A stretch of 64,000 nucleotides of DNA from an uncultured delta proteobacterium. GTDB taxonomy: Bacteria; Desulfobacterota; Desulfomonilia; Desulfomonilales; Desulfomonilaceae. Below are positions 3,535 to 43,706 of the stretch, in pieces. Location: contig CAVVHK010000109.1 of the NCBI GenBank assembly GCA_963747865.1, positions 1 to 64,000 of the forward strand. Direction: 5' to 3'. A program made the position numbers and the translations under genes. The notes beneath the pieces were generated by a model that saw nothing but the letters and a program-made list of their open reading frames with translations, did no database searches and was not told where the DNA came from. Within the stretch, counting starts at the first letter, position 1, and each line of letters begins with the position of its first letter.

Positions 3535-5337
3535 CTACCCTTCGGCCAACGACTCCAGGTGCTCCCACCGGGCGTAGACGTCGCGGAGTTGTTGTTCCAG
3601 CTCTTCCAAGCGGGCCTTGGCCTCGACGATCGCCAGACGGTCTTGCTGGTAGAAGGCCGGATCGGCCATCGTCTGGTGCAGCGAGGCGAGGTTTTTTTCC
3701 AGGGTCGCGATTCTCGCCGGCAAGGCGTCCAACTCGGCCCGCTCGGCATACTTCAACCGTCGTTGGGCCGGCGGCTTCTTGGCCGGTCGTGAAGCTTCCG
3801 TTTCCCGTTTCCCAGTGGAAGCCTCCGCAGGACCGGCGGCCGCTTGCCGCGTACGCCGCTGGAGCAGCCAGTCGTCGTAGCCGCCGGCATACTCGTGGAC
3901 TTCGCCGGCCCCTTCCAGGACCAGCGTGCTGGTGACCACGTGGTTGAGAAACTCACGGTCGTGGCTCACCAGCAACAGCGTGCCGGAGTATTCCAGCAGC
4001 AGGTCTTCCAAGAGCTCGAGGGTTTCGATGTCCAGGTCGTTGGTCGGCTCGTCCAGCACCAACAGGTTCGACGGCTTGGTGAACAGCCGCGCCAGGAGCA
4101 CGCGGTTCCGCTCGCCGCCGGAGAGCCGGGCCACCGGACTGCGGGCCTGCTCGGGCGTGAAGAGGAAGTCCTCCAGGTAGCCGATGATGTGACGCCGCTG
4201 GCCGTTGATCACCACCGCGTCGCTGCCGCCGGCGACGTTTTCCTGGATGGTCTTCTCGCCGTCCAACTGCGCGTGGAGCTGGTCGAAATAGGCCGGCTCG
4301 AGGTTCGTCCCGCGGCGGACGGTGCCCGCGGTGGGCTCCAGCTCGCCCAGCAGCATCCGCAGCAGCGTGGTCTTGCCCGAGCCGTTGGGACCGATGATCC
4401 CCACGCGGTCGCCCCGCATCACCAGCGTGGAGAAGCCGTTGAGGATCGTGCGCTGGCCGAAGCGATGGGCGACGCCCTTGGCTTCGATCACCAGCCGGCC
4501 CGATCGCTCGGCCTCGTGGAGCTCGCACCTCGATCGTGCCCGGCCGGTCGCGGCGTTGGCTGCGGATCTCCCGCATGGCCAATAGTGAGCGGACGCGGCC
4601 ATGGTTTCGCGTCCGCCGGGCCTCGATCTTGCGGCGGATCCAGACCTCTTCCTGGGCCAGCCGCTTGTCGAACAACGCCCGCTGGGCGGCCTCGGTCTCC
4701 AGGGCCGCTTGCTTGCGGACGAGGAACGTGTCGTAATCGCAGGACCAGCTCGTCAGCATGCCGCGGTCGAGTTCGATGATCCGCGTGGCCAGCTTGCGCA
4801 GCAGCACGCGGTCGTGGGTCACCATCGCCAGCGTGCCTTGAAAGCGGAGGAGAAAATCTTCCAGCCAGGTGATGGCTTCCAGATCGAGGTGGTTGGTCGG
4901 CTCGTCCAGCAGGAGCACGTCCGGTTCGGCGGCCAGGGCCCGGGCCAACAGCACGCGGCGCTTCATCCCGGCGGAGAGCACGGCCAGTTGGGCCTCGGGG
5001 TCCAGGTTCATGCGGCTGAGCACCTTCTCCACCCGGTAGTCGCCCGACAGACGGTGCTCCGGCCGGCGGCCGGCGGAGACGCAGTTGAAGACCGTGCCCG
5101 ACAGGTCGCCGGGGACCTCCTGGACCAGCATTGCGGTGACCAACTCCTGCTGGCGGACCACCTGGCCCTCGTCGGGTTCCAGCTCACCCTGGATGAGTCG
5201 CAGCAGGGTTGACTTGCCCTCGCCGTTGCGGCCCAGGATGCACAACCGCTCGCCGGGGTCGATCTGGAGCTGGACCCCGTCCAATACGCGGGGACCGCGG
5301 AAGCGGAGGCTGACGTCCCGCAAGCTGATCAAGGGCA
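3535..5337 (-). CDS. uup: ABC-F family ATPase (Uup-like, two ABC domains plus a C-terminal coiled-coil domain). It has one frameshift at about 4500-4600.
   Basis: N-terminal half (ORF 3953..5497, real start 'MPLISLRDVSL' at ~5337): Walker A 'GRNGEGKST', signature 'LSAGMKRRVLLARAL', Walker B 'LLLDEPTNHLD'. C-terminal half (ORF 3535..4602): 'GPNGSGKTT', 'LSGGERNRVLLARL', 'LVLDEPTNDLD', then a coiled-coil tail. Confidence 0.8.
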
Positions 5338-5515
5338 TAGCCACGATTGTCGCACATGATCGGCCCCAGGTTGAAGGCCACCGACGGGGGGCTCCATCTT
5401 CACCGCCTACCGGCCCCGAACCCACGCTTGCCGATTTTAGCAAAGCCACTAGGCTATGCTTCCATGCGTTTCGTCTCAAGTGCCGCGATTCACTCACCCT
5501 ACAAGCGAGGGGCGA

Positions 5516-6105
5516 AATGGGGCTGTTCTTGTCGATGTCGGGGGTAATAGGGGCCAGGGAGGCTGATGTTGAAGCGGCCTTGAAGGAGTATTCCGCCGCT
5601 CATCTTGGCCGGTTCGAGCCGACAACGAAAAAGTCTCCTTCCTGGAGGTTCTCATACTCTCCGAATCAGACGGGAATACGACCGCTGTGTATCCGGGCGA
5701 GTTCTTTGAGTGGGATGATGCCGCCGCCCACTTGTCCCACTCACTCAACGTCCCCGTCTTCTCGTTCCATATTCATGACCACGATCTGTGGATGTACATC
5801 CTCTTTGTGGCGGGGGAGGCGGTGGATCAGTTTAACCCGATCCCCGACTATTGGGACGACAACCTTTTCGAACGAGGATCGGCAGCACTGGATGGGCAGC
5901 CCTGCCGTGATCGCCCGATGGTCTGCAACATAATCCTTCAGAATTCATGATCTCGTGTGGAATGCCGGAAGCGCAAATGGTCAGCATGCGCGAGTTGACC
6001 GGCGTAGCCATTGAGATGAAATCGGTTCGCCAAGCCGTCAGGAAATCGTTTGCCGAGATCTTCAGCGTCGAGCTGATCCCGTCCTCTCTGGAAGAGGTCA
6101 TCTAG
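5516..6105 (+). pseudogene. Hypothetical protein, apparently read through two frame switches (ORF 5085..5933 tail, ORF 5687..5950, then a 53-aa frame 5947..6105).
   Basis: Three consecutive open frames join end to end with a good coding look ('IPDYWDDNLFERGSAALDGQPC', 'MRELTGVAIEMKSVRQAVRKSFAEIF'). No recognisable family. Confidence 0.2.
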
Positions 6106-33449: not shown

Positions 33450-33683
33450 TTATTCCACCTTCTGCTTGGGGGTTTTCGCGGGTTTGCACTTTTTGCAGTC
33501 TTTTACTACTTTGCCCTTTTCTTTAACGCACTCAGCCCTGGTCATTTCCTGACAATCACCCTTGATACAGCAGTGGATCTTTTTGTCCGCTTTGTCTGTT
33601 TTCTTGGTGTCGGTTTGGGCGACGGCAAACGGCACGGCCAACGCAAATACCATAATTGTAACGAGAACCAGCAATTTCTTCAT
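33450..33683 (-). CDS. Small secreted Lys/Cys-rich protein
   Basis: Signal peptide 'MKKLLVLVTIMVFALAVPFAVAQ'. The mature part has 7 Cys residues. Confidence 0.5.
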   Translation of the reverse strand: MKKLLVLVTIMVFALAVPFAVAQTDTKKTDKADKKIHCCIKGDCQEMTRAECVKEKGKVVKDCKKCKPAKTPKQKVE

Positions 33684-34456: not shown

Positions 34457-34624
34457 ATGGACAATTTGACTTTTGGTGTGACTCTGATGCTAATCGGCAT
34501 GGGAGGAACCTTTCTTACACTGGCAATCATCATTCTTTTCACCAACCTGATCAAACATGCCTTTCCGGTTTTCGAGGCGCATGGCGGTCGTGAAAAGAAT
34601 AAAACCGAGGGCAGTTTAAAATGA
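34457..34624 (+). CDS. Small single-TM subunit, OadG-like (Na+-decarboxylase gamma-type)
   Basis: 55 aa, 'MDNLTFGVTLMLIGMGGTFLTLAIIILF'. 4-nt overlap with the downstream beta-subunit gene. Confidence 0.5.
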   Translation: MDNLTFGVTLMLIGMGGTFLTLAIIILFTNLIKHAFPVFEAHGGREKNKTEGSLK

Positions 34625-35770
34625 TCGAGAACGTGATCTACAGCTCCGCTGAACTCCTCACTGGAGTTCGCTTCCTGTTTACGCAGGGATGGCCCAATTT
34701 GATTATGATGTTTGCAGGATTTGGTCTTCTTTACCTGGCGATCCACAAGGAAATTGAGCCGTTACTCTTGCTTCCCATCGGTTTTGGGTGTGTGCTTGTT
34801 AACCTTCCGTTTTCGGAAGTTATGGACAAGCAAGGAGTGCTCAGGTTCTTTTACGATGTTGGCATAATTACGGAGATCTTTCCCTTACTGATTTTTGTCG
34901 GCATTGGCGCAATGACGGACTTCGGGCCACTTCTGGAAAATCCGAAGATCCTGCTGTTTGGCGCGGCCGGCCAGTTCGGTATCTTCATCACCCTACTACT
35001 AGCGCTTGCTCTTGGTTTTTCTAAGCTGGACGCTGTCTGCATCGGAATCATCGGCGCCTGCGACGGCCCGACCGCCATCTACGTGACCAGTCAGTACGCC
35101 CCTCATTTATTGGGACCGATATCTGTAGCAGCCTACTCTTATATGTCTCTTGTCCCCATAATTCAGCCTCCCATAATGGGACTTCTTACCTCGGAAAAAG
35201 AGAGAACCGTGCACATGGGAGCAGTGCGCGAGACTGTTTCCAGGAGGACAAGAATACTGTTTCCCCTTATGGTGACCGTGGTCACCGGCATAATTCGCTC
35301 CGAAGGGACTGCCGCTCATGGGAATGATAATGCTGGGGAATTTTATGAAGGAAAGCGGAGTGGTGGCAAGGCTTACCGGCTCGTCCGAGAACGAAGTCGC
35401 TAACACCGTAACTTTATTCTTGGGACTCGCCATCGGCGGAACCATGGAGGGCGGCAAGTTTTTGCGCCTTGAGACTTTGGGAGTCTTCAGCCTCGGGTTT
35501 GTGGCGATTTGTTTTGACACTGCCGCCGGGGTGCTCATCGGGAAATTTTGGTGTTGGCTTAGCGGCGGTAAGATTAATCCTTTGATCGGCGCCGCTGGGA
35601 TATCCGTGTACCCGATGGCCGTGCGGGTCGTTCAAGCCCAGGGCCAATTATACGATAAGAAGAACTTTCTACTAATGCATGCCATGGGAGCCAATACCGG
35701 CGGCCAGATAGGATCGGTCATGGCAGCCGCCATTATGCTCTCGCTTCTGAAAGGCATGGGGTTCATATAG
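34621..35770 (+). CDS. Na+-transporting oxaloacetate/methylmalonyl-CoA/glutaconyl-CoA decarboxylase beta subunit. It has one frameshift near 35290-35330.
   Basis: 'GFGCVLVNLPF', 'LLIFVGIGAMTDFGPLL...FGAAGQFGIF', 'IIGACDGPTAIY'. The continuation 'MGMIMLGNFMKESGVV...GAAGISVYPMA...GANTGGQIGSVMAA' is in another frame. Confidence 0.8.
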
Positions 35771-36640: not shown

Positions 36641-38554
36641 ATGCGAGAAGGTAGAATCCACAGACAGGTAGCGTTACTGCTGTTTGTTGCCGTATTCTTG
36701 TTAATGTCCGTTCATTCAGCTCCAGGTCAGGGTGTTCAGAGTTCTTCCTCTCCTAAAGGGAGCGAGCCGCCTCTGATGGGGGTAGTCAAGCGCATCCAAG
36801 GCGTTGCTACCGTGGCTCGTCCAGGCCAAGCCCCTATGACGATAAACGAGGGTTTCGCCATACATGTTGAGGACACCCTGCAGACTGCCGCCAATAGCAA
36901 AGCTTGGTGGAATCAGGCGCCGGCGGATTCTCCAGTCCCGGTGCTGTCAACCGGAAACGCTTCACTGGGGGAAAATTCCTCTTTTGAACTCATCAGATTC
37001 GATTCGCAAGGCGGAGCCGAGGCGTTCACAGGAGAGGTGGGCTCAGGCCTTGTTCGTTTCATCAAGAATATCCCCAATACCAGTCCTCAGCCGTCCTTCA
37101 CGATAACCACCCCCACTGCGCTGATCGAAGTGTTGCCCGCCGATAGACCGGCCGACTTCGTAGTGGAGGTGCGAAACCAGCAAATCTCCACGATTTATGG
37201 CATATGGGGCGCGGTCCGGGTGAGGAATATTTCCGACAAATTTACAGAGGAAAGAATTGTCAGGTCCTGTCAGAAGGTCGATGTGGAAGCGGACAAAGAG
37301 CCAGGCCCCGTCACCGGAGTTTCCCCCCAGACATTGAAGGACCTCATCACTCGGACTACCATCCCCAACACGCTGCCCGAAGACGTTCCATCTTGCGGAG
37401 AGGGCGGTCCTGTTCCATACGAGATCGAGGGTGTCCCTGAGGGCGAATACTGGCCTCCGCAGGGCGGATGCCCATGTCCCCCTAACCAGGAATGGGTGGG
37501 TTACGGATGCGCGCCCTGCCCATATTGGAAATTCTACGATCCATACACTTGCAGATGCGTTTCCCGGTGCCGAAGCGATTACAATTGTCCCAAATGCCAG
37601 CGCTGCGAAGATGGCCATTGTCGTCCAAAGCTGTGCCCGCCGGGCGAATGGCTCAATTACGAAACCTGTCGCTGCGAGAGAAAATGCGACAAACAATGCC
37701 CACCAGGTTCCTGGCTGAACCCGAAGACTTGCACGTGTGAGAAAGAGTGTCACAAGGAGTGTCCACCCGGCCAGTGGCTCAATCCCAAAACCTGCGAATG
37801 TGAGACCAAGTGCCAACGCACCTGCCCGCCGGGCCAAAAACTCGATCCTACCACGTGTACATGCAAACGAGCTTGTGACAAACAATGTCCGCCCGATCAG
37901 TGGCTGAATTACGCGACATGCCAGTGTATGCCGAGATGCAATCTCCAATGCCCGGAAGGTCAGATTCTAAACAGAGAATTGTGTAAATGCGAGGGTAGTA
38001 TCCCTGCGTGCAACAAGACTTGTCTTCCCGGCCAAAAACTCAACCGAGTCACTTGCACGTGTGAACGAGCCTGCGATAAGCAATGCCCGCCCGATCAATG
38101 GCTGAATTACTCGACATGTGAGTGCATTCCGAGATGTCATCTTCAGTGTCCGGAAGGTCAGTTCCTTAACAGGCGATCGTGCAAATGTGAAAGCAGGCCC
38201 ACGTGCAAGAAAACGTGTTCCTCTGGTTATCGGCTGGACCCCGTCAGTTGCCAATGCCTGGCGATTCCACAAATTGAAAAGAAGGTCATTCAAACAAAAG
38301 GTTGTAGATCTAACGCCGAGTGCGGCCCGGATAGCGTTTGCCGCAACGGAAACTGTATACCCATAATACGGCATGACACGACCAAGCCTTACTGGGAGCA
38401 CCCAAAGACGATCATTCAGGAGCCGCACCCCTGGCCCGGCTCTGAAGGCAAACCCAAGTTCAATATACCCAAGTCCGATATACCCAAGTCCGATATACCC
38501 AAGTTCAATGTGCCCAAGACAGATCAAACACCCTTTAGACAGCAATTACGGTGA
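36641..38554 (+). CDS. Secreted protein with a FecR-like N-terminal domain and about 10 tandem 21-22-aa cysteine-rich modules (CPPGxWLNxxTCxCxxxCxxx)
   Basis: Signal peptide 'VALLLFVAVFLLMSVHSAPG'. Repeats 'CPPGEWLNYETCRCERKCDKQ', 'CPPGSWLNPKTCTCEKECHKE', 'CPPGQWLNPKTCECETKCQRT' and others. A DNA-level ~198-bp tandem duplication lies at 37873..38070 / 38069..38230. The C-terminus carries 'IPKSDIPKSDIPKFNVPK' mini-repeats. Confidence 0.7.
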   Translation: MREGRIHRQVALLLFVAVFLLMSVHSAPGQGVQSSSSPKGSEPPLMGVVKRIQGVATVARPGQAPMTINEGFAIHVEDTLQTAANSKAWWNQAPADSPVPVLSTGNASLGENSSFELIRFDSQGGAEAFTGEVGSGLVRFIKNIPNTSPQPSFTITTPTALIEVLPADRPADFVVEVRNQQISTIYGIWGAVRVRNISDKFTEERIVRSCQKVDVEADKEPGPVTGVSPQTLKDLITRTTIPNTLPEDVPSCGEGGPVPYEIEGVPEGEYWPPQGGCPCPPNQEWVGYGCAPCPYWKFYDPYTCRCVSRCRSDYNCPKCQRCEDGHCRPKLCPPGEWLNYETCRCERKCDKQCPPGSWLNPKTCTCEKECHKECPPGQWLNPKTCECETKCQRTCPPGQKLDPTTCTCKRACDKQCPPDQWLNYATCQCMPRCNLQCPEGQILNRELCKCEGSIPACNKTCLPGQKLNRVTCTCERACDKQCPPDQWLNYSTCECIPRCHLQCPEGQFLNRRSCKCESRPTCKKTCSSGYRLDPVSCQCLAIPQIEKKVIQTKGCRSNAECGPDSVCRNGNCIPIIRHDTTKPYWEHPKTIIQEPHPWPGSEGKPKFNIPKSDIPKSDIPKFNVPKTDQTPFRQQLR

Positions 38555-38606
38555 GCAGTAGGAATTGTTCCGAAATGCGTCTACCCAGATTTAGAAGGAG
38601 GACTAC

Positions 38607-39323
38607 ATGATGTCGAAAGTTTTGATCCGAGTGTTTTGCATTTCATTGGTAGCTGGATTGATCCTATTGGGAATCGGCCCTGTGGTTGCACAGAAGGCGG
38701 ATAAGCCTATGGCTACCCAGGAAAAGATGATGCCCCAGCCCAAGGCTGGAGCGCCGAGCCCCGGCCAAGAGATGGCTGGGCCGCCGAAGGACAAAGTAGA
38801 GGAGTTTGCGGTCTGTTCCCCTGCTTTTCCCGGTGAACAAATAGTGGAGATGATGGAATTTACCGCAAAGCTTTCCCCTAAAGCGGCTGAAAAGCTCAGG
38901 CCGATACTGTTAAAGTGTGACCTTGACGTGAACAACGAACTTCTCGGCTTTCTGGAAGATATGCAAAACGAAGTGGCCGACGCTCAATTCGATAATGAAG
39001 AGCAGGAAAAACTGTTTCTCGCCGAAAAAGGAAAAGAGATAGAGGCCCAATTAGCTGTCGTACAGAAACCCGTCAACGAAGGCGATCTGAAGATGGTCGT
39101 ATCGGAACTTTTTGACATGAAGCAAGCTAGCTTAAAGGGCCACTTGGCTGATCTGGAAAAAGAAACGGAACAGGTCAAGAAAAGAATAGCCGAACGGGAA
39201 AAATTGAAGGGCCAAATAGTCGATCGCAAGATCAAGGAGATGGCGTCAAGCGTGGAGCAGCCGGCTCAACAAAAGGCTCAAGGAGAAAAGGCTCAGGCTG
39301 AAGATCCTTTGGATTGGGATTAG
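38607..39323 (+). CDS. Secreted coiled-coil hypothetical protein
   Basis: AGGAGG RBS. Signal peptide 'VLIRVFCISLVAGLILLGIGPVVA'. The rest is acidic and helical. Confidence 0.5.
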   Translation: MMSKVLIRVFCISLVAGLILLGIGPVVAQKADKPMATQEKMMPQPKAGAPSPGQEMAGPPKDKVEEFAVCSPAFPGEQIVEMMEFTAKLSPKAAEKLRPILLKCDLDVNNELLGFLEDMQNEVADAQFDNEEQEKLFLAEKGKEIEAQLAVVQKPVNEGDLKMVVSELFDMKQASLKGHLADLEKETEQVKKRIAEREKLKGQIVDRKIKEMASSVEQPAQQKAQGEKAQAEDPLDWD

Positions 39324-39387
39324 CGGAAAACCGGATAATTGTGGGTCAAGTATTTCGTGTTCTTGTCATTCCAACAAATTTGGACAA

Positions 39388-39738
39388 ATGAAAGGATGGC
39401 GCCACATGAGCGAAAATGAAAAAGAAAGAAATCCAGAGGTTAATGAGACCGACGTTCCCGAATTGGACCCGAAGGTGGAATCGAGAAGAGAGTTTTTTTC
39501 CAGTCTAGGGAAATGGTCGAAAGTCGTAATCGCCGCGGTCGTTTTGGGCGAAGCGGTCGGCGCGCCTGAAGCCTCTTCGTATTGGAGCAACGGCGGTTGG
39601 CACAACGGTGGCTGGCATAACGGCGGTTGGCATAACGGCGGCTGGCACAATGGCGGCTGGTGGAATGGCGGTTGGAAAAACAAATGGAATAACGGCGGCT
39701 GGTATAATGGTGGTTGGTCCAACTACTACAGCAAATAA
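39388..39738 (+). CDS. Small Tat-signal peptide/protein with a C-terminal Gly/Trp repeat array (GGWHN x4, GGWWN, GGWKN, GGWYN, GGWSN). Candidate rSAM substrate.
   Basis: Twin-arginine motif 'SRREFFSSLG' plus h-region 'VVIAAVVLGEAVGAPEA'. The C-terminus is encoded by 15-bp tandem repeats (aacggcggctggcac...) spanning 39589-39725. The nearest downstream ORFs are a Cys-motif protein at 240 nt and a radical SAM/SPASM enzyme. Confidence 0.55.
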   Translation: MKGWRHMSENEKERNPEVNETDVPELDPKVESRREFFSSLGKWSKVVIAAVVLGEAVGAPEASSYWSNGGWHNGGWHNGGWHNGGWHNGGWWNGGWKNKWNNGGWYNGGWSNYYSK

Positions 39739-40024
39739 ATGTCGATCCGCGGGCGTCGGCTCCATTAGCGGGAAGTTTGCGTGAAAGCGCCTCCGGGGAG
39801 GATATTCCTATTGGAAATCTCTCCCCTGGGCTTCCCTTCCCGAATTCCGTATCCGGCGCAGGACGGGCGCCGAAATCCCACAGGCGGGAACGCGTCGACC
39901 GGACGCCCCTTTTAGCAGCGTCCCAACTTCTTTAAGGCTCCGCAAAGGCGTTATACCGTATGCATTCGGAGATGGCGTGAATCGTTGTGAATGCAATCAA
40001 CGACTTTTTCCCACGGAGGCCCTT

Positions 40025-40825
40025 ATGCCAATGCTATGTAACATTCCGACATCTCTCTCAACATCCGCTCAATTCAAGAATATCGTTGTTAGATCTTCAA
40101 GCGTAGCGGAGCTTTTGTCTGTGGCTCGTGAGGTTGACAGAGATCGCCTCCACGGACTACAGATTATATCGCTTGTAGACGACCCCAAGCCTCTCGCCTC
40201 TCTCTCGGAGCCGATCACGCTGGATCTGGTTGTCGAGTCGTCATCGGAGTTTTCCTCCATTTACAAGTACGCGGAGCTGCTACGAAAGCATCCAATAAGG
40301 CTTACCGTGCCGGTGACCCCCGGTTTCGTCAAGGCAGTCAGGCTGGCTTTGTCCTTGAACATACCCGTGAAACTTGAAGTGGGGCAGCCTGACGTTGAGA
40401 TGACCGAAGAGCTGGGGGCCTTGGCAAGGTTTTATCTCTACCATCAGACCGTTAGCCAACCTATGGAATTCTTTCACAGCGCGCTACTCGGTTTTTATTT
40501 GGACGACCCGGTATCTCTGTGGAAAATACAAGAGGAAGATCCCGATTCATTTGGTTATTTCGATGACACCGGAAGGAACCATCTTTCCCGTCGTCTAGTG
40601 GGCCATCGATTGCCGCAGGAAGTCCGAGAATACATAGCCGGAAATCTGGAGGCTGTGCCGTCAGTTTTACAGACTTGCCGGGATTGCCGATATTTGAAAT
40701 CTTGCGCAGGCTATTTCAAGTTTCCTTCCACCGACTATGATTGCTCCGGAATTCGGGAGTTGCTGGGGATTTTGATGGAGGCGGCTCTCGAGCTTAAGAA
40801 AACCTACCAATCTACAGAAAAATAG
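40025..40825 (+). CDS. Hypothetical protein with a C-terminal Cys motif (CRDCRYLKSCAGYFKFPSTDYDC), SPASM-like, with no radical-SAM core
   Basis: GGAGG RBS before the ATG at 40025. There is no CX3CX2C. The C-terminal spacing C-x2-C-x5-C-x3..-C resembles a SPASM/twitch half-domain. 10-nt gap to the rSAM gene. Confidence 0.5.
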   Translation: MPMLCNIPTSLSTSAQFKNIVVRSSSVAELLSVAREVDRDRLHGLQIISLVDDPKPLASLSEPITLDLVVESSSEFSSIYKYAELLRKHPIRLTVPVTPGFVKAVRLALSLNIPVKLEVGQPDVEMTEELGALARFYLYHQTVSQPMEFFHSALLGFYLDDPVSLWKIQEEDPDSFGYFDDTGRNHLSRRLVGHRLPQEVREYIAGNLEAVPSVLQTCRDCRYLKSCAGYFKFPSTDYDCSGIRELLGILMEAALELKKTYQSTEK

Positions 40826-40834
40826 GATGCGACA

Positions 40835-41989
40835 TTGAATCCGAATTGCATTTCTATGATCTTTTTGCCCACGCTCAAATGCAATGCGGCATGCGAGTAC
40901 TGTTTCGAACATAAGACAGATGAAGTGATGTCCACAGCAAGATTCGCGACGTTGCTCACAAAGCTGCTGGACTACTTGGAAGTCGCGGGCCTGGGAGGCG
41001 CAAAGATATTCTGGCAAGGCGGAGAAATCCTGACCATGGACCCGGCCTGGTTCGATGAGGCTTTGGCGCTGATCAACAAACAGGCCGAGGAACGAGGGCT
41101 CCGCATCGACAACGAATTGCAGACCAATCTCGTCGGCTACTCCCCTCGCTGGAATGCAGTTATAAAGCATATGTTTCTGAATCAATTGGGCTCATCACTG
41201 GATTTCCCCAATCTCCACCGGAAACTTCCCGGCGGTAAGCCTGAAGAATTCAACAGCTTGTGGCTCAAGAAATACCGAGAAGCTCGCTCCAACGGAATAG
41301 CCGTTGGGGTAATAACGCTACCCAACAGAGCCACGCTAAAGGTCGGACCGGAAGATTTTTATCATTATTTTACTCAAGAGATCGGACTAACCGGATTTCA
41401 GGTCAATTCCCCCTTTCCGGGCGGGCCCGCGAGCGATCACAAGGATAGGCTTCTTCCGGATATGGACGAATATGCGCGCTTCTGCGTGGGTCTAATAGAC
41501 GTTTGGCTAAAAGAAGGATACCCGCGTGGAATAGGCATTTCTCCCTATGATGGGATTCTGCATTATTTCCGAACAGGCGGATTGTCGATGCTGCTATGTG
41601 GAATGCAGGCGGATTGTAGCCGGAATTTTTTCGCCGTAGATCCTTACGGTAATGTTTCCCAATGTGATTGCTGGGTTACGAGCTACCCTGAATTTCATTT
41701 CGGAAATGTTTTCCGGGACCACTCTCTTCAGGAAATTCTGGATAGTCCAGTAAGGGCGCGTTTTAGTAGTCGACCGATCGAGATAATTGAAAATGAAGAT
41801 TGCATAGAATGCGATTATCTATCGATATGTCACGGCGGTTGCGCTATTCGCGCATATTCGGCCACGGGCCGCTTCACCTCCAAAGATTCGTATTGTGAAT
41901 TCTACAAGAAGATATTCTCCAGGCTGGAACGGGCTTCCGTCGAAATAGCAGCGGGGAAATATAAGAGAGAAGATAAAATCCCCGCGTGA
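40835..41989 (+). CDS. Radical SAM/SPASM-domain enzyme (anSME-like peptide-modifying family)
   Basis: rSAM cluster 'CNAACEYC'. Auxiliary-cluster Cys residues 'CGMQADCSRNFFAVDPYGNVSQCDCW'. Canonical SPASM 'CIECDYLSICHGGC' (CX2CX5CX3C). Confidence 0.85.
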   Translation: MNPNCISMIFLPTLKCNAACEYCFEHKTDEVMSTARFATLLTKLLDYLEVAGLGGAKIFWQGGEILTMDPAWFDEALALINKQAEERGLRIDNELQTNLVGYSPRWNAVIKHMFLNQLGSSLDFPNLHRKLPGGKPEEFNSLWLKKYREARSNGIAVGVITLPNRATLKVGPEDFYHYFTQEIGLTGFQVNSPFPGGPASDHKDRLLPDMDEYARFCVGLIDVWLKEGYPRGIGISPYDGILHYFRTGGLSMLLCGMQADCSRNFFAVDPYGNVSQCDCWVTSYPEFHFGNVFRDHSLQEILDSPVRARFSSRPIEIIENEDCIECDYLSICHGGCAIRAYSATGRFTSKDSYCEFYKKIFSRLERASVEIAAGKYKREDKIPA

Positions 41990-42694: not shown

Positions 42695-42943
42695 TGTTCC
42701 TCCAAAAAACAATGTCAATCTTGGGTATTGTTTAGGGCTAGAGAGAAATCCCCTTTTCTCCACAAGAAAGGTCAAGTCAGCCCCAAATTTCCGAGCCAAA
42801 TTCAGCCCACACTCCAGGAAATATACCACAAAACGTTCCGTATTTAAGCCGTCTTTTTGCAGTGGAGCCAAAATGACGTTGATGCGGAAAACAAACTCTC
42901 GTATTTAGAGACTACACTAATTTGTCAAACCACGGAGGAGACA

Positions 42944-43706
42944 ATGAATCAAGTCGATTTGTCCGGTAAAGTCGCTGTAGTCACCGGCGCCGGAAAGGGT
43001 ATAGGTAGAGCAATAGCCTTGGGCCTGGCCGGTTCGGGGGCGAAGGTCGTTTCTGGCTTCGAGGACTGAGCAGGACATTGAAGAAGTCGCAGGCGCCATA
43101 CGCGCCGCCGGAGGAGAGGCTCTTGCAAAAACGACCGATTTAATGCACAGTGACCAGATTAATGCGCTCGTGGACACCACCTTGAGCGCATACGGCGGGA
43201 TCGATATCCTGGTGAACAACGCTGCCCGAAGCTTCCTGAGGCCTCTCATCGATCTGCGGGAAGACGGATTTGACAAGATTTTCGCTACGAATGTGAAGGC
43301 TCCTTTCTTGCTGAGCCGTTCCGCGGCGAAGATAATGGCGTCGCGCGGTGGAGGTCGTATTGTCAATGTTACCACCATCGGGGCAGAGCGCGGCGGACCC
43401 ATGATGGGCGCTTATTATGCGAGTAAAGCCGCTCTCAAGATGCTAACCATGTGCATGGCCGTTGAGTGGGCGCCCATGAACGTGCTGGTAAACGCCGTGG
43501 GACCAGGGATGACTCGAACCCACTTTAGCGAACCTATCTGGTCGAACCCCGAGATCGAGAAACAAATAGTCACTAGGATTCCCCAGGGCAGATTAGCTGA
43601 TCCTGAGGATATAGTCGGCGCCGTGCTCTTCTTATGCTCAAGCGCCGCCGGATTTATTACCGGCCAGACTATTTATGTGGATGGCGGGGCTTTGGCCAAT
43701 TCGTAG
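42944..43706 (+). CDS. Short-chain dehydrogenase/reductase (SDR). It has one frameshift near 43060.
   Basis: '[28 protein letters not shown]' (TGxxxGxG). In a second frame: 'NAARSF', catalytic '[11 protein letters not shown]', 'PGMTRT'. Confidence 0.75.

Follow-up and report, generated by a model that had tools for sequence, protein, structure and literature searches.

Radical S-adenosylmethionine (SAM) enzymes that form three-residue cyclophanes (3-CyFEs) take a hydrogen from the C-beta of residue i+2 and bond this carbon to the ring of the aromatic residue at position i. OscB joins C7 of Trp to the C-beta of Asn or Asp, XncB joins C6 of Trp to the C-beta of Arg or Asn, and OscB, XncB and DynA all cross-link the motif W-x-N (PMC11002830); daropeptide maturases and 3-CyFEs have a common ancestry (PMC12912966). 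Here we describe a gene cluster of an uncultured member of the Desulfomonilaceae, located at positions 36641-41989 of a 64,000-nucleotide stretch of contig CAVVHK010000109.1 (hereafter the window), in which a radical SAM/SPASM enzyme (the maturase) is encoded together with a Trp-Asn repeat peptide bearing a leader of the twin-arginine translocation (Tat) type and a pseudo-radical-SAM protein (the partner). The closest known system to this cluster is GrrA/OscA1-GrrM/OscB (TIGR04260/TIGR04261), with which it shares a precursor of ~110-125 amino acids (aa), a C-terminal half made up of a Gly-rich aromatic-x-Asn/Asp array, and an adjacent radical SAM/SPASM gene. The window system differs from GrrA/OscA1 in its Tat-type leader, its partner and its exported accessory neighbors (NTF2-like in relatives), and its maturase is nearer to DynA and to the anaerobic sulfatase-maturating enzymes (anSME) than to GrrM/OscB. 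Whereas GrrA/OscA1 is cyanobacterial, the window-type system occurs outside the cyanobacteria.

Cross-linking by a single radical SAM/SPASM enzyme is also the principle of DynA, DarE and DarW, and dynobactin reportedly contains a C-C bridge between Trp1 and Asn3. The window maturase reached ~30% of the cut-off in this comparison, and its precursor is a long multi-repeat chain instead of a single short core; window-type systems further differ in having a signal-like leader and an extra partner, without a dedicated transporter. The anSMEs resemble the window maturase in their three-cluster architecture and in the absence of an N-terminal recognition element (RRE) of the kind found in systems for peptides made on ribosomes and modified after translation (RiPPs), and they modify, in the cytoplasm, a substrate that is exported later. 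What the cluster has in common with GrrM, DynA/DarE and anSME is a working principle; it belongs to none of these curated families. A further parallel is offered by the bufferins and other RiPPs made by oxidative enzymes that depend on multinuclear non-heme iron (MNIOs), in which a general-export signal peptide replaces the classical leader, and for which a non-catalytic partner was proposed to mask the signal until modification is finished (PMC12452194, PMC11626156). Bufferins differ from the window system in their MNIO rather than radical SAM enzyme, Sec rather than Tat-type motif, Cys-derived heterocycles and DUF2063 partner fold.

We read the window cluster as a RiPP cluster of the triceptide kind, in which Trp-Asn cyclophanes would be made in the cytoplasm and the product would then undergo Tat export and signal cleavage, and we put the probability of this full reading at roughly 0.55. 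All five same-strand (+) open reading frames (ORFs) that an earlier inspection of the letters alone (the sequence-only reading) had placed between 36641 and 41989 were found. To place them in context, 80 genome loci were fetched and scanned, and counts were made on those that were non-duplicate and had flanks of at least 2 kb upstream and 1.5 kb downstream, 56 in all. An ORF with at least three [GSAR]W.[ND] motifs lay no more than 3 kb from the radical SAM/SPASM gene in 52 of these 56 loci, and in 50 of the 52 the same ORF carried a leader of the RRxFL...GKWS type (RR.[FL]x...W[ST]). The sequence-only reading had named exactly this co-occurrence of maturase orthologues with Gly/Trp-repeat Tat-type peptides as its test, and the neighborhoods bore it out. 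A partner of ~270 aa was encoded directly upstream of the maturase, usually overlapping its start, in 44/56 loci, and an exported NTF2-like (SnoaL_3) protein in 43/56. The 56 loci span at least five phyla, and the pairing of peptide and maturase was seen in Desulfobacterota, Acidobacteriota, Verrucomicrobiota, Gammaproteobacteria and Rokubacteria, among others. Three long contigs from different phyla share a module of a SnoaL_3-like protein, a ~110-aa protein, a ~270-aa protein and the radical SAM enzyme, and flanking genes differ completely among loci in which the peptide-maturase linkage persists. Since the arrangement recurs across phyla it is far beyond chance; the gene cluster is real, widespread and unnamed, and its widely conserved core is three genes, encoding peptide, partner and maturase.

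The maturase family comprises at least 896 homologous protein clusters (E ≤ 1e-10), named at source only 'radical SAM protein' or 'uncharacterized', and a relative is encoded in 268 species-representative genomes. Carriers are abundant soil and wastewater bacteria (Pyrinomonadaceae, Chthoniobacterales, Competibacteraceae) together with Desulfomonilales. In the Competibacteraceae loci (L018, L020, L022, L036, L043, L047, L048, L052 and L066) the maturase gene is followed, often after a gene for an NTF2-like exported protein, by the peptide gene; no partner is encoded nearby and the GKWS leader is unchanged. A small, divergently transcribed lipoprotein-like gene is conserved just upstream of the maturase gene in Competibacteraceae loci.

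The precursor gene of the window is a 116-aa ORF at 39388-39738 (+), which reads MKGWRHMSENEKERNPEVNETDVPELDPKVESRREFFSSLGKWSKVVIAAVVLGEAVGAPEASS, then YWSNGGWHNGGWHNGGWHNGGWHNGGWWNGGWKNKWNNGGWYNGGWSNYYSK. Its real start is probably the ATG at 39406 (MSENEK...), giving a chain of 110 aa, because AAGGA precedes this codon at 39391-39395 and the resulting N-terminus matches those of homologues. The putative leader and Tat-type signal (39406-39579, +) opens with an acidic n-region, which is followed by SRREFF (RR at 39484-39489), by GKWS and by a short stretch of hydrophobic residues; APEASS then leads up to the core. The peptide runs ...ESRREFFSSLGKWSKVVIAAVVLGEAVGAPEASS, after which the core (39580-39735, +) brings 10 W-x-N motifs, the putative cross-linking sites, in the order WSN, WHN four times, WWN, WKN, WNN, WYN and WSN. 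At the DNA level these motifs form a 15-nt tandem repeat (39588-39718); they lie mostly in GGWxN pentads, and the chain stops five residues past the last of them. The window peptide matched no family in NCBIfam or Pfam, and the C/S-x-P-x-R motif of anSME-type substrates is absent from it. From its motifs and its linkage to the maturase gene we infer, with high confidence, that the window peptide is the substrate of the radical SAM enzyme.

Relatives from three phyla share the design of the window peptide (SRRDFLKRLGRWS...(GGGxWVNR)n; SRRELLISLGKWS...(GGAWANR)n; DRRLFLRSIGKWS...(GGGGWINR)n). Leader and core statistics were drawn from 59 non-redundant peptides, and Tat criteria and hidden Markov model (HMM) counts from 45 aligned non-redundant leaders or peptides. 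The leader consensus is E..L.SRR(D/L/E)FL(R/Q)S(L/M)GKWS.A(V/A)I(G/A)..., with A.A at its end; RR, W and S are invariant, F is conserved at 98%, L at 94% and K at 86%, and an Ile stands 15 residues past the first Arg of RR in 96%. The first core Trp follows the RR at a distance of 32-38 residues in 57 of the 59 peptides. Each peptide holds 4-17 W-x-N/D motifs, in which W and N are the sole invariant core positions across phyla. The middle residue (X2) is variable (mostly I, V, A, Y or H, with G, L and others), and of the 448 motifs, 288 have R and 96 have G directly after the Asn/Asp. Modal motif spacing is seven residues, and five in the window peptide and its relatives, and the chain terminates one or two residues past the last motif in 47/59. 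TIGR04260 ('GrrA/OscA1 family cyclophane-containing rSAM-modified RiPP') was matched by 10 of the 45 peptides (E ≤ 0.007); the peptide of locus L001 passed its cut-off of 31 bits with 35.1, and the window peptide missed it with 7.1 bits (E 7.9). Split queries confined this similarity to the Gly-rich core (profile positions 71-118), and leader-only queries gave no match to TIGR04260.

Some precursors depart from the common form. Those of the verrucomicrobial loci L045, L058, L060, L063, L078 and L082 have Arg/Pro-rich repeats (WINRWGPRRGG) in place of Gly-rich ones and only four W-x-N motifs. Two from Desulfomonilaceae (L007:4238-4936 and L009:4291-4944) contain a long poly-Gly spacer, with CWCNC and a Pro/Gly-rich tail C-terminal to the W-x-N array; the L009 precursor is apparently frameshifted inside its repeats.

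The maturase (40835-41989, +) is 384 aa long from a TTG at 40835, and 377 aa in its database copy, which starts at an internal ATG. It was described from the letters alone as a complete radical SAM/SPASM enzyme, and this description is upheld by its Pfam Radical_SAM and SPASM domains and by its cysteines: the CxxxCxxC motif (C16, C20 and C23) and nine Cys of the SPASM region were invariant or nearly so in an alignment of 46 homologues. DynA was the top HMM match for all 46 maturases tested, with the same score ranking throughout. The window maturase scored 137.6 bits against the DynA model (cut-off 450), 116.7 against the anSME model TIGR03942 (349), 100.3 against DarE (650), 87.7 against DarW (650) and 74.9 against GrrM/OscB TIGR04261 (310; best E among the 46 members 3.3e-27); scores against AmcB (55.2/425), YhhB (49.5/445), XyeB (47.8/450) and FxsB (43.9/370) also fell below cut-off. 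The enzyme passed no curated NCBIfam model, and assigned neither to anSME nor to another non-peptide family. A profile search of the PDB gave anSME (4k36/4k37) as the nearest solved structure (E 7e-33), and tblastn of plasmids with the maturase as query returned anSME-like matches only, at ≤27% identity. Given the W-x-N motifs of its presumed substrate, a Trp-Asn three-residue cyclophane is the modification we favor, with some confidence.

The leaders of the family show features of a Tat signal. The TatP regular expression RR.[FGAVML][LITMVF], taken with the Tat consensus from PMC1182353, was matched by 45/45 leaders, the window having SRREFF. An uncharged run of at least 13 residues was present in 42/45 (median 18; hydropathy median 1.3), in a h-region that is Gly/Ala-rich and moderately hydrophobic across the family; AxA occurred no more than nine residues from the first core Trp in 32/45, and a basic c-region residue in 22/45. 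In the three long contigs, genes for a protease or an ABC exporter are missing from the conserved core module (peptide, partner, maturase and SnoaL-like protein), and the accessory proteins carry their own signal peptides. Since the module is without protease or transporter and the leader has signal anatomy with AxA at the junction, export by a general pathway with signal-peptidase cleavage would be the simplest route. Tat is indicated by the invariant RR-x-F-L pattern, and would also suit a rigid, multiply cross-linked cargo. Fe-S-dependent modification in the cytoplasm ahead of export is, moreover, the classic reason for use of Tat. From these features we regard export of the peptide through Tat as likely.

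The partner (40025-40825, +; 266 aa, in an ORF open from GTG 39977, which would give 282 aa) had no Pfam family and no NCBIfam match at E ≤ 0.1. Its fold is that of a degenerate radical SAM/SPASM protein from which CxxxCxxC is absent, and its invariant Cys are only four: C218, C221, C227 and C240, in the motif ECxxCxxxxxCGGYFKWPxxxxxC. Profile-profile alignment placed them on C323, C326, C332 and C354 of the maturase, in agreement with the SPASM-like C-terminus without a radical SAM core that had been read from the letters of the fourth gene. The partner has Tyr for the fourth Cys of the CxxCx5Cx3C motif of the maturase. By analogy with the anSME structure, these four positions would be the residues that bind auxiliary cluster II, and the lost Cys would belong to cluster I. 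Judged by its residues, the partner is a radical SAM paralogue without the SAM cluster and without one auxiliary cluster, and it probably carries one [4Fe-4S] cluster. A GeoRSP-type pair had also been suggested as a model against which to check the two genes; this candidate was rejected, the partner having no NCBIfam match and GeoRSP being absent from the best 25 of the 52 listed matches of the enzyme.

Homologues of the partner were hard to see with single-sequence search, which returned five proteins only, and plentiful by profile search, which found 323, all 'hypothetical'; an exhaustive HMM search gave 412 partner clusters at 50% identity. The stop codon of the partner overlaps or abuts the maturase start in most loci, and in L040:4999-7197 the partner domain is fused in frame to its cognate maturase. 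Elsewhere the domain is fused to small radical SAM domains resembling HxsC, NirJ or MoaA (P0292, P0310 and P0341) or to a HemN-like radical SAM protein (P0254), and in P0272 it stands with a methyltransferase domain that bears a weak similarity to ApyS, a methyltransferase of RiPPs. P0311 is also listed among the partner-domain fusion proteins. The overlap with the maturase gene, the L040 fusion and the fusions to unrelated enzymes point to a non-catalytic adaptor working together with the enzyme, and we give an even chance to the partner acting as a leader or substrate adaptor; its domain may be a reusable substrate-adaptor module. RREs occur as separate proteins and as fusions to diverse tailoring enzymes, and so does the partner domain. 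Its analogy to RREs, and to redox enzyme maturation proteins (REMPs) of the TorD/DmsD type, is functional only, these being non-catalytic binders of leaders or signals that couple maturation to release, and the partner is a degenerate radical SAM/SPASM barrel in place of a winged helix or an all-helical REMP.

The two remaining genes of the cluster encode proteins predicted to be exported. The first (36641-38554, +; 637 aa) has a signal-like N-terminus, ~10-11 CPPGxxLNxxTCxC modules matching Pfam CXCXC (E 3.8e-9) and a PKSDIPK-repeat tail, and matched no PDB sequence. The sequence-only reading had given it about ten Cys-rich modules and a FecR-like N-terminus; the modules stand, and the FecR match is weak and sub-threshold (E 0.14, 13 bits vs a cut-off of 24). 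The second (38607-39323, +; 238 aa), which had been called a secreted coiled-coil protein, had no Pfam or NCBIfam family. Its single-sequence AlphaFold2 (AF2) model was all-helical, at modest confidence (predicted local distance difference test [pLDDT] 73, predicted template modeling score [pTM] 0.41), and a fold search with this model gave no match; of the earlier coiled-coil description, this all-helical model is what stands. Homologues of the Cys-rich protein occur only in the Desulfomonilales loci L006, L008 and L009, and those of the helical protein, directly upstream of the peptide, in L006-L009 only. The proposed five-gene system therefore holds for its conserved core of peptide, partner and maturase and not for the Cys-rich and helical genes as general members, which are Desulfomonilales-specific accessories. 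In other phyla a SnoaL_3/NTF2-like exported protein occupies the position of the helical protein, with a signal peptide that contains RR in Verrucomicrobia and is Sec-like in Competibacteraceae; these proteins score just under the SgcJ/EcaC cut-off (26-31 bits vs 33.95). Examples are found at L063:290-871, L078:4126-4689, L048:7256-7885 and L022:7375-7962. The export of the accessory proteins suggests an extracytoplasmic site of action or handling for the product.

We propose that the 110-116-aa precursor is made in the cytoplasm, where its leader, made up of an acidic N-terminus, SRRxF(L/F), GKWS and a moderately hydrophobic stretch, would be held by the maturase and, in most lineages, probably by the catalytically dead paralogue too. 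The radical SAM/SPASM enzyme would then take a hydrogen from the Asn C-beta and link this carbon to the indole of the Trp that precedes the Asn by two residues, with a loss of 2 Da per ring and up to 10 rings (-20 Da) in the window peptide; we place this step in the cytoplasm because the enzyme is a Fe-S/SAM protein. The rigid polycyclic peptide would be exported via Tat, the same leader serving as twin-arginine signal, and signal peptidase I would cut just ahead of the first W-x-N. The partner may retain the leader until modification is complete. Outside the cytoplasm the product would meet the helical and Cys-rich proteins here, or the NTF2-like protein elsewhere. A leader with a double purpose, recognized by the maturase and acting as a true Tat signal, with the dead paralogue as a hold-back adaptor that gives the peptide over to Tat only once every ring is closed, is a more tentative extension of this scheme, possible but short of probable.

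Several observations weigh against the reading of cytoplasmic Trp-Asn cyclophane formation followed by Tat export. The maturase, like all 46 members, reached no curated cyclophane-synthase cut-off, and its sequence is equally near anSME and DynA; the TIGR04260 similarity of the peptides falls in Gly-rich sequence of low complexity and may have arisen by convergence; and in 4 of the 56 well-flanked loci a repeat peptide within 3 kb was not found, several apparent exceptions among the loci being frameshifted or truncated contigs of metagenome-assembled genomes. A maturase outside every curated cyclophane-synthase family, within an anSME-like clade that includes enzymes of several chemistries (PMC11002830), might modify the W-x-N peptide otherwise, by darobactin/dynobactin-like ether or C-N links, hydroxylation or methylation of Asn or Trp, epimerization, or cross-links between repeats, and the bias in the residue after Asn might mean that a fourth position participates. 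We consider such other chemistry rather unlikely, as Trp and Asn at i and i+2 alone are invariant, the same pair and spacing is cross-linked by three characterized enzymes, and X2 is as variable as would be expected of a bridged residue that does not participate. Alternatively, the enzyme might mature a different protein in the manner of anSME, for instance a sulfatase, with the Gly/Trp peptide as an unrelated secreted neighbor, an assignment that the sequence-only reading had named as one of its refutations. Although anSME is the second-best HMM match and, among solved structures, the best one, its model gives 116.7 bits vs a cut-off of 349, no sulfatase gene is present in the cluster or its flanks, and the linkage of peptide and maturase is kept in 52/56 loci across phyla despite wholly different flanks; the neighborhood data effectively refute this candidate, which we rejected as very improbable.

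The Tat-type leader and the partner are open to similar argument. The Tat signal claimed by the sequence-only reading is strong at the level of motifs and thin in HMM support: the TIGR01409 Tat model (cut-off 16.7 bits) was passed by 1/45 leaders only, that of L001 (18-20.9 bits), Pfam TAT_signal matched 0/6 peptides scanned, and the window peptide matched neither. The n-region of the leaders is long and acidic, which is atypical for Tat signals, and in the window leader the uncharged run is only nine residues, followed by APEASS. GKWS is conserved above any generic Tat position except RR, suggesting recognition by an enzyme, and signal peptides on RiPP precursors are highly unusual and documented for Sec only (PMC12452194). 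The leader could on these grounds be a RiPP leader with a chance RRxFL, or a Sec/signal recognition particle (SRP) signal or membrane anchor, with export by another route or a tethered product. This we hold to be unlikely, because the RR is kept without exception between phyla, together with F and L at consensus positions, the h-region, AxA and basic c-region residues are as described above, and no dedicated exporter or protease belongs to the conserved core module. As for the partner, its retention of four Cys at the SPASM cluster site would also fit a redox or Fe-S electron-transfer subunit, or a second enzyme with its own chemistry, in place of a leader-binding adaptor. The Competibacteraceae speak in the same direction: loci without a partner nearby keep the same GKWS leader, so the partner is not indispensable and GKWS cannot be read solely as its binding motif. 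Without CxxxCxxC, SAM cleavage by the partner is unlikely, and its domain recurs in fusions with three unrelated catalytic domains, as would be expected of a recognition module rather than a dedicated reductase; a redox or enzymatic role is therefore doubtful, if less so than other chemistry or a non-Tat leader.

Upstream, the cluster is flanked by an OAD-beta gene, and downstream by an ankyrin protein gene (opposite strand), a short-chain dehydrogenase (SDR) gene and two HGD-D genes; since these flanking genes belong to unrelated metabolism, the cluster boundaries at 36641-41989 are sound. Locus L006 also has the downstream SDR and HGD-D genes of the window, and synteny with L006 and L008 points to a Desulfomonilales-like source of the window. 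The intergenic region between peptide and partner (39739-40024) matched no Rfam family and folded no better than shuffled sequence (z = -0.16), and no convincing terminator or promoter was found in it. The OAD-beta gene is split into overlapping ORFs at 34621-35403 and 35318-35770, which correspond to Pfam OAD_beta positions 2-200 and 206-349; the split stems from a frameshift, pseudogenization or misassembly. The SDR gene is likewise split into two window ORFs (42857-43069 and 43143-43706), and its syntenic counterpart in L006 (10759-11520) is one ORF of 254 aa with 76% identity. Elsewhere in the window, a 77-aa secreted Lys/Cys-rich ORF at 33450-33683 (-) gave a Pfam GPR15L match that is probably meaningless and a weak DUF6520 match, and GC content peaks at 0.644 in 4001-6000 (vs ~0.52 elsewhere), where both strands carry long overlapping ORFs at 3535-5933.

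A literature search combining Tat with RiPP, SPASM or precursor peptide returned nothing relevant, two key triceptide papers lying outside the search that may mention the cluster, and no link between Tat and a RiPP precursor was found; this agrees with the earlier statement that a Tat-exported RiPP is not an established paradigm. A Tat-type leader on a Fe-S/SAM-modified peptide would extend the signal-peptide logic of RiPPs beyond Sec, and would explain how these clusters can do without a protease or transporter of their own. If the leader does serve both purposes, the product would be without precedent among natural RiPPs and small proteins in undergoing cross-linking by a radical SAM enzyme followed by Tat export, and if the partner is a hold-back adaptor, it would represent a new fold class of RiPP substrate-adaptor domain, reused with other tailoring enzymes. 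With 4-17 cyclophane rings, such peptides would be polycyclic products of unusual size. The pseudo-radical-SAM partner domain could serve as a handle for genome mining, and at least 896 radical SAM clusters, 268 species genomes and 412 partner clusters would gain a predicted substrate and chemistry.

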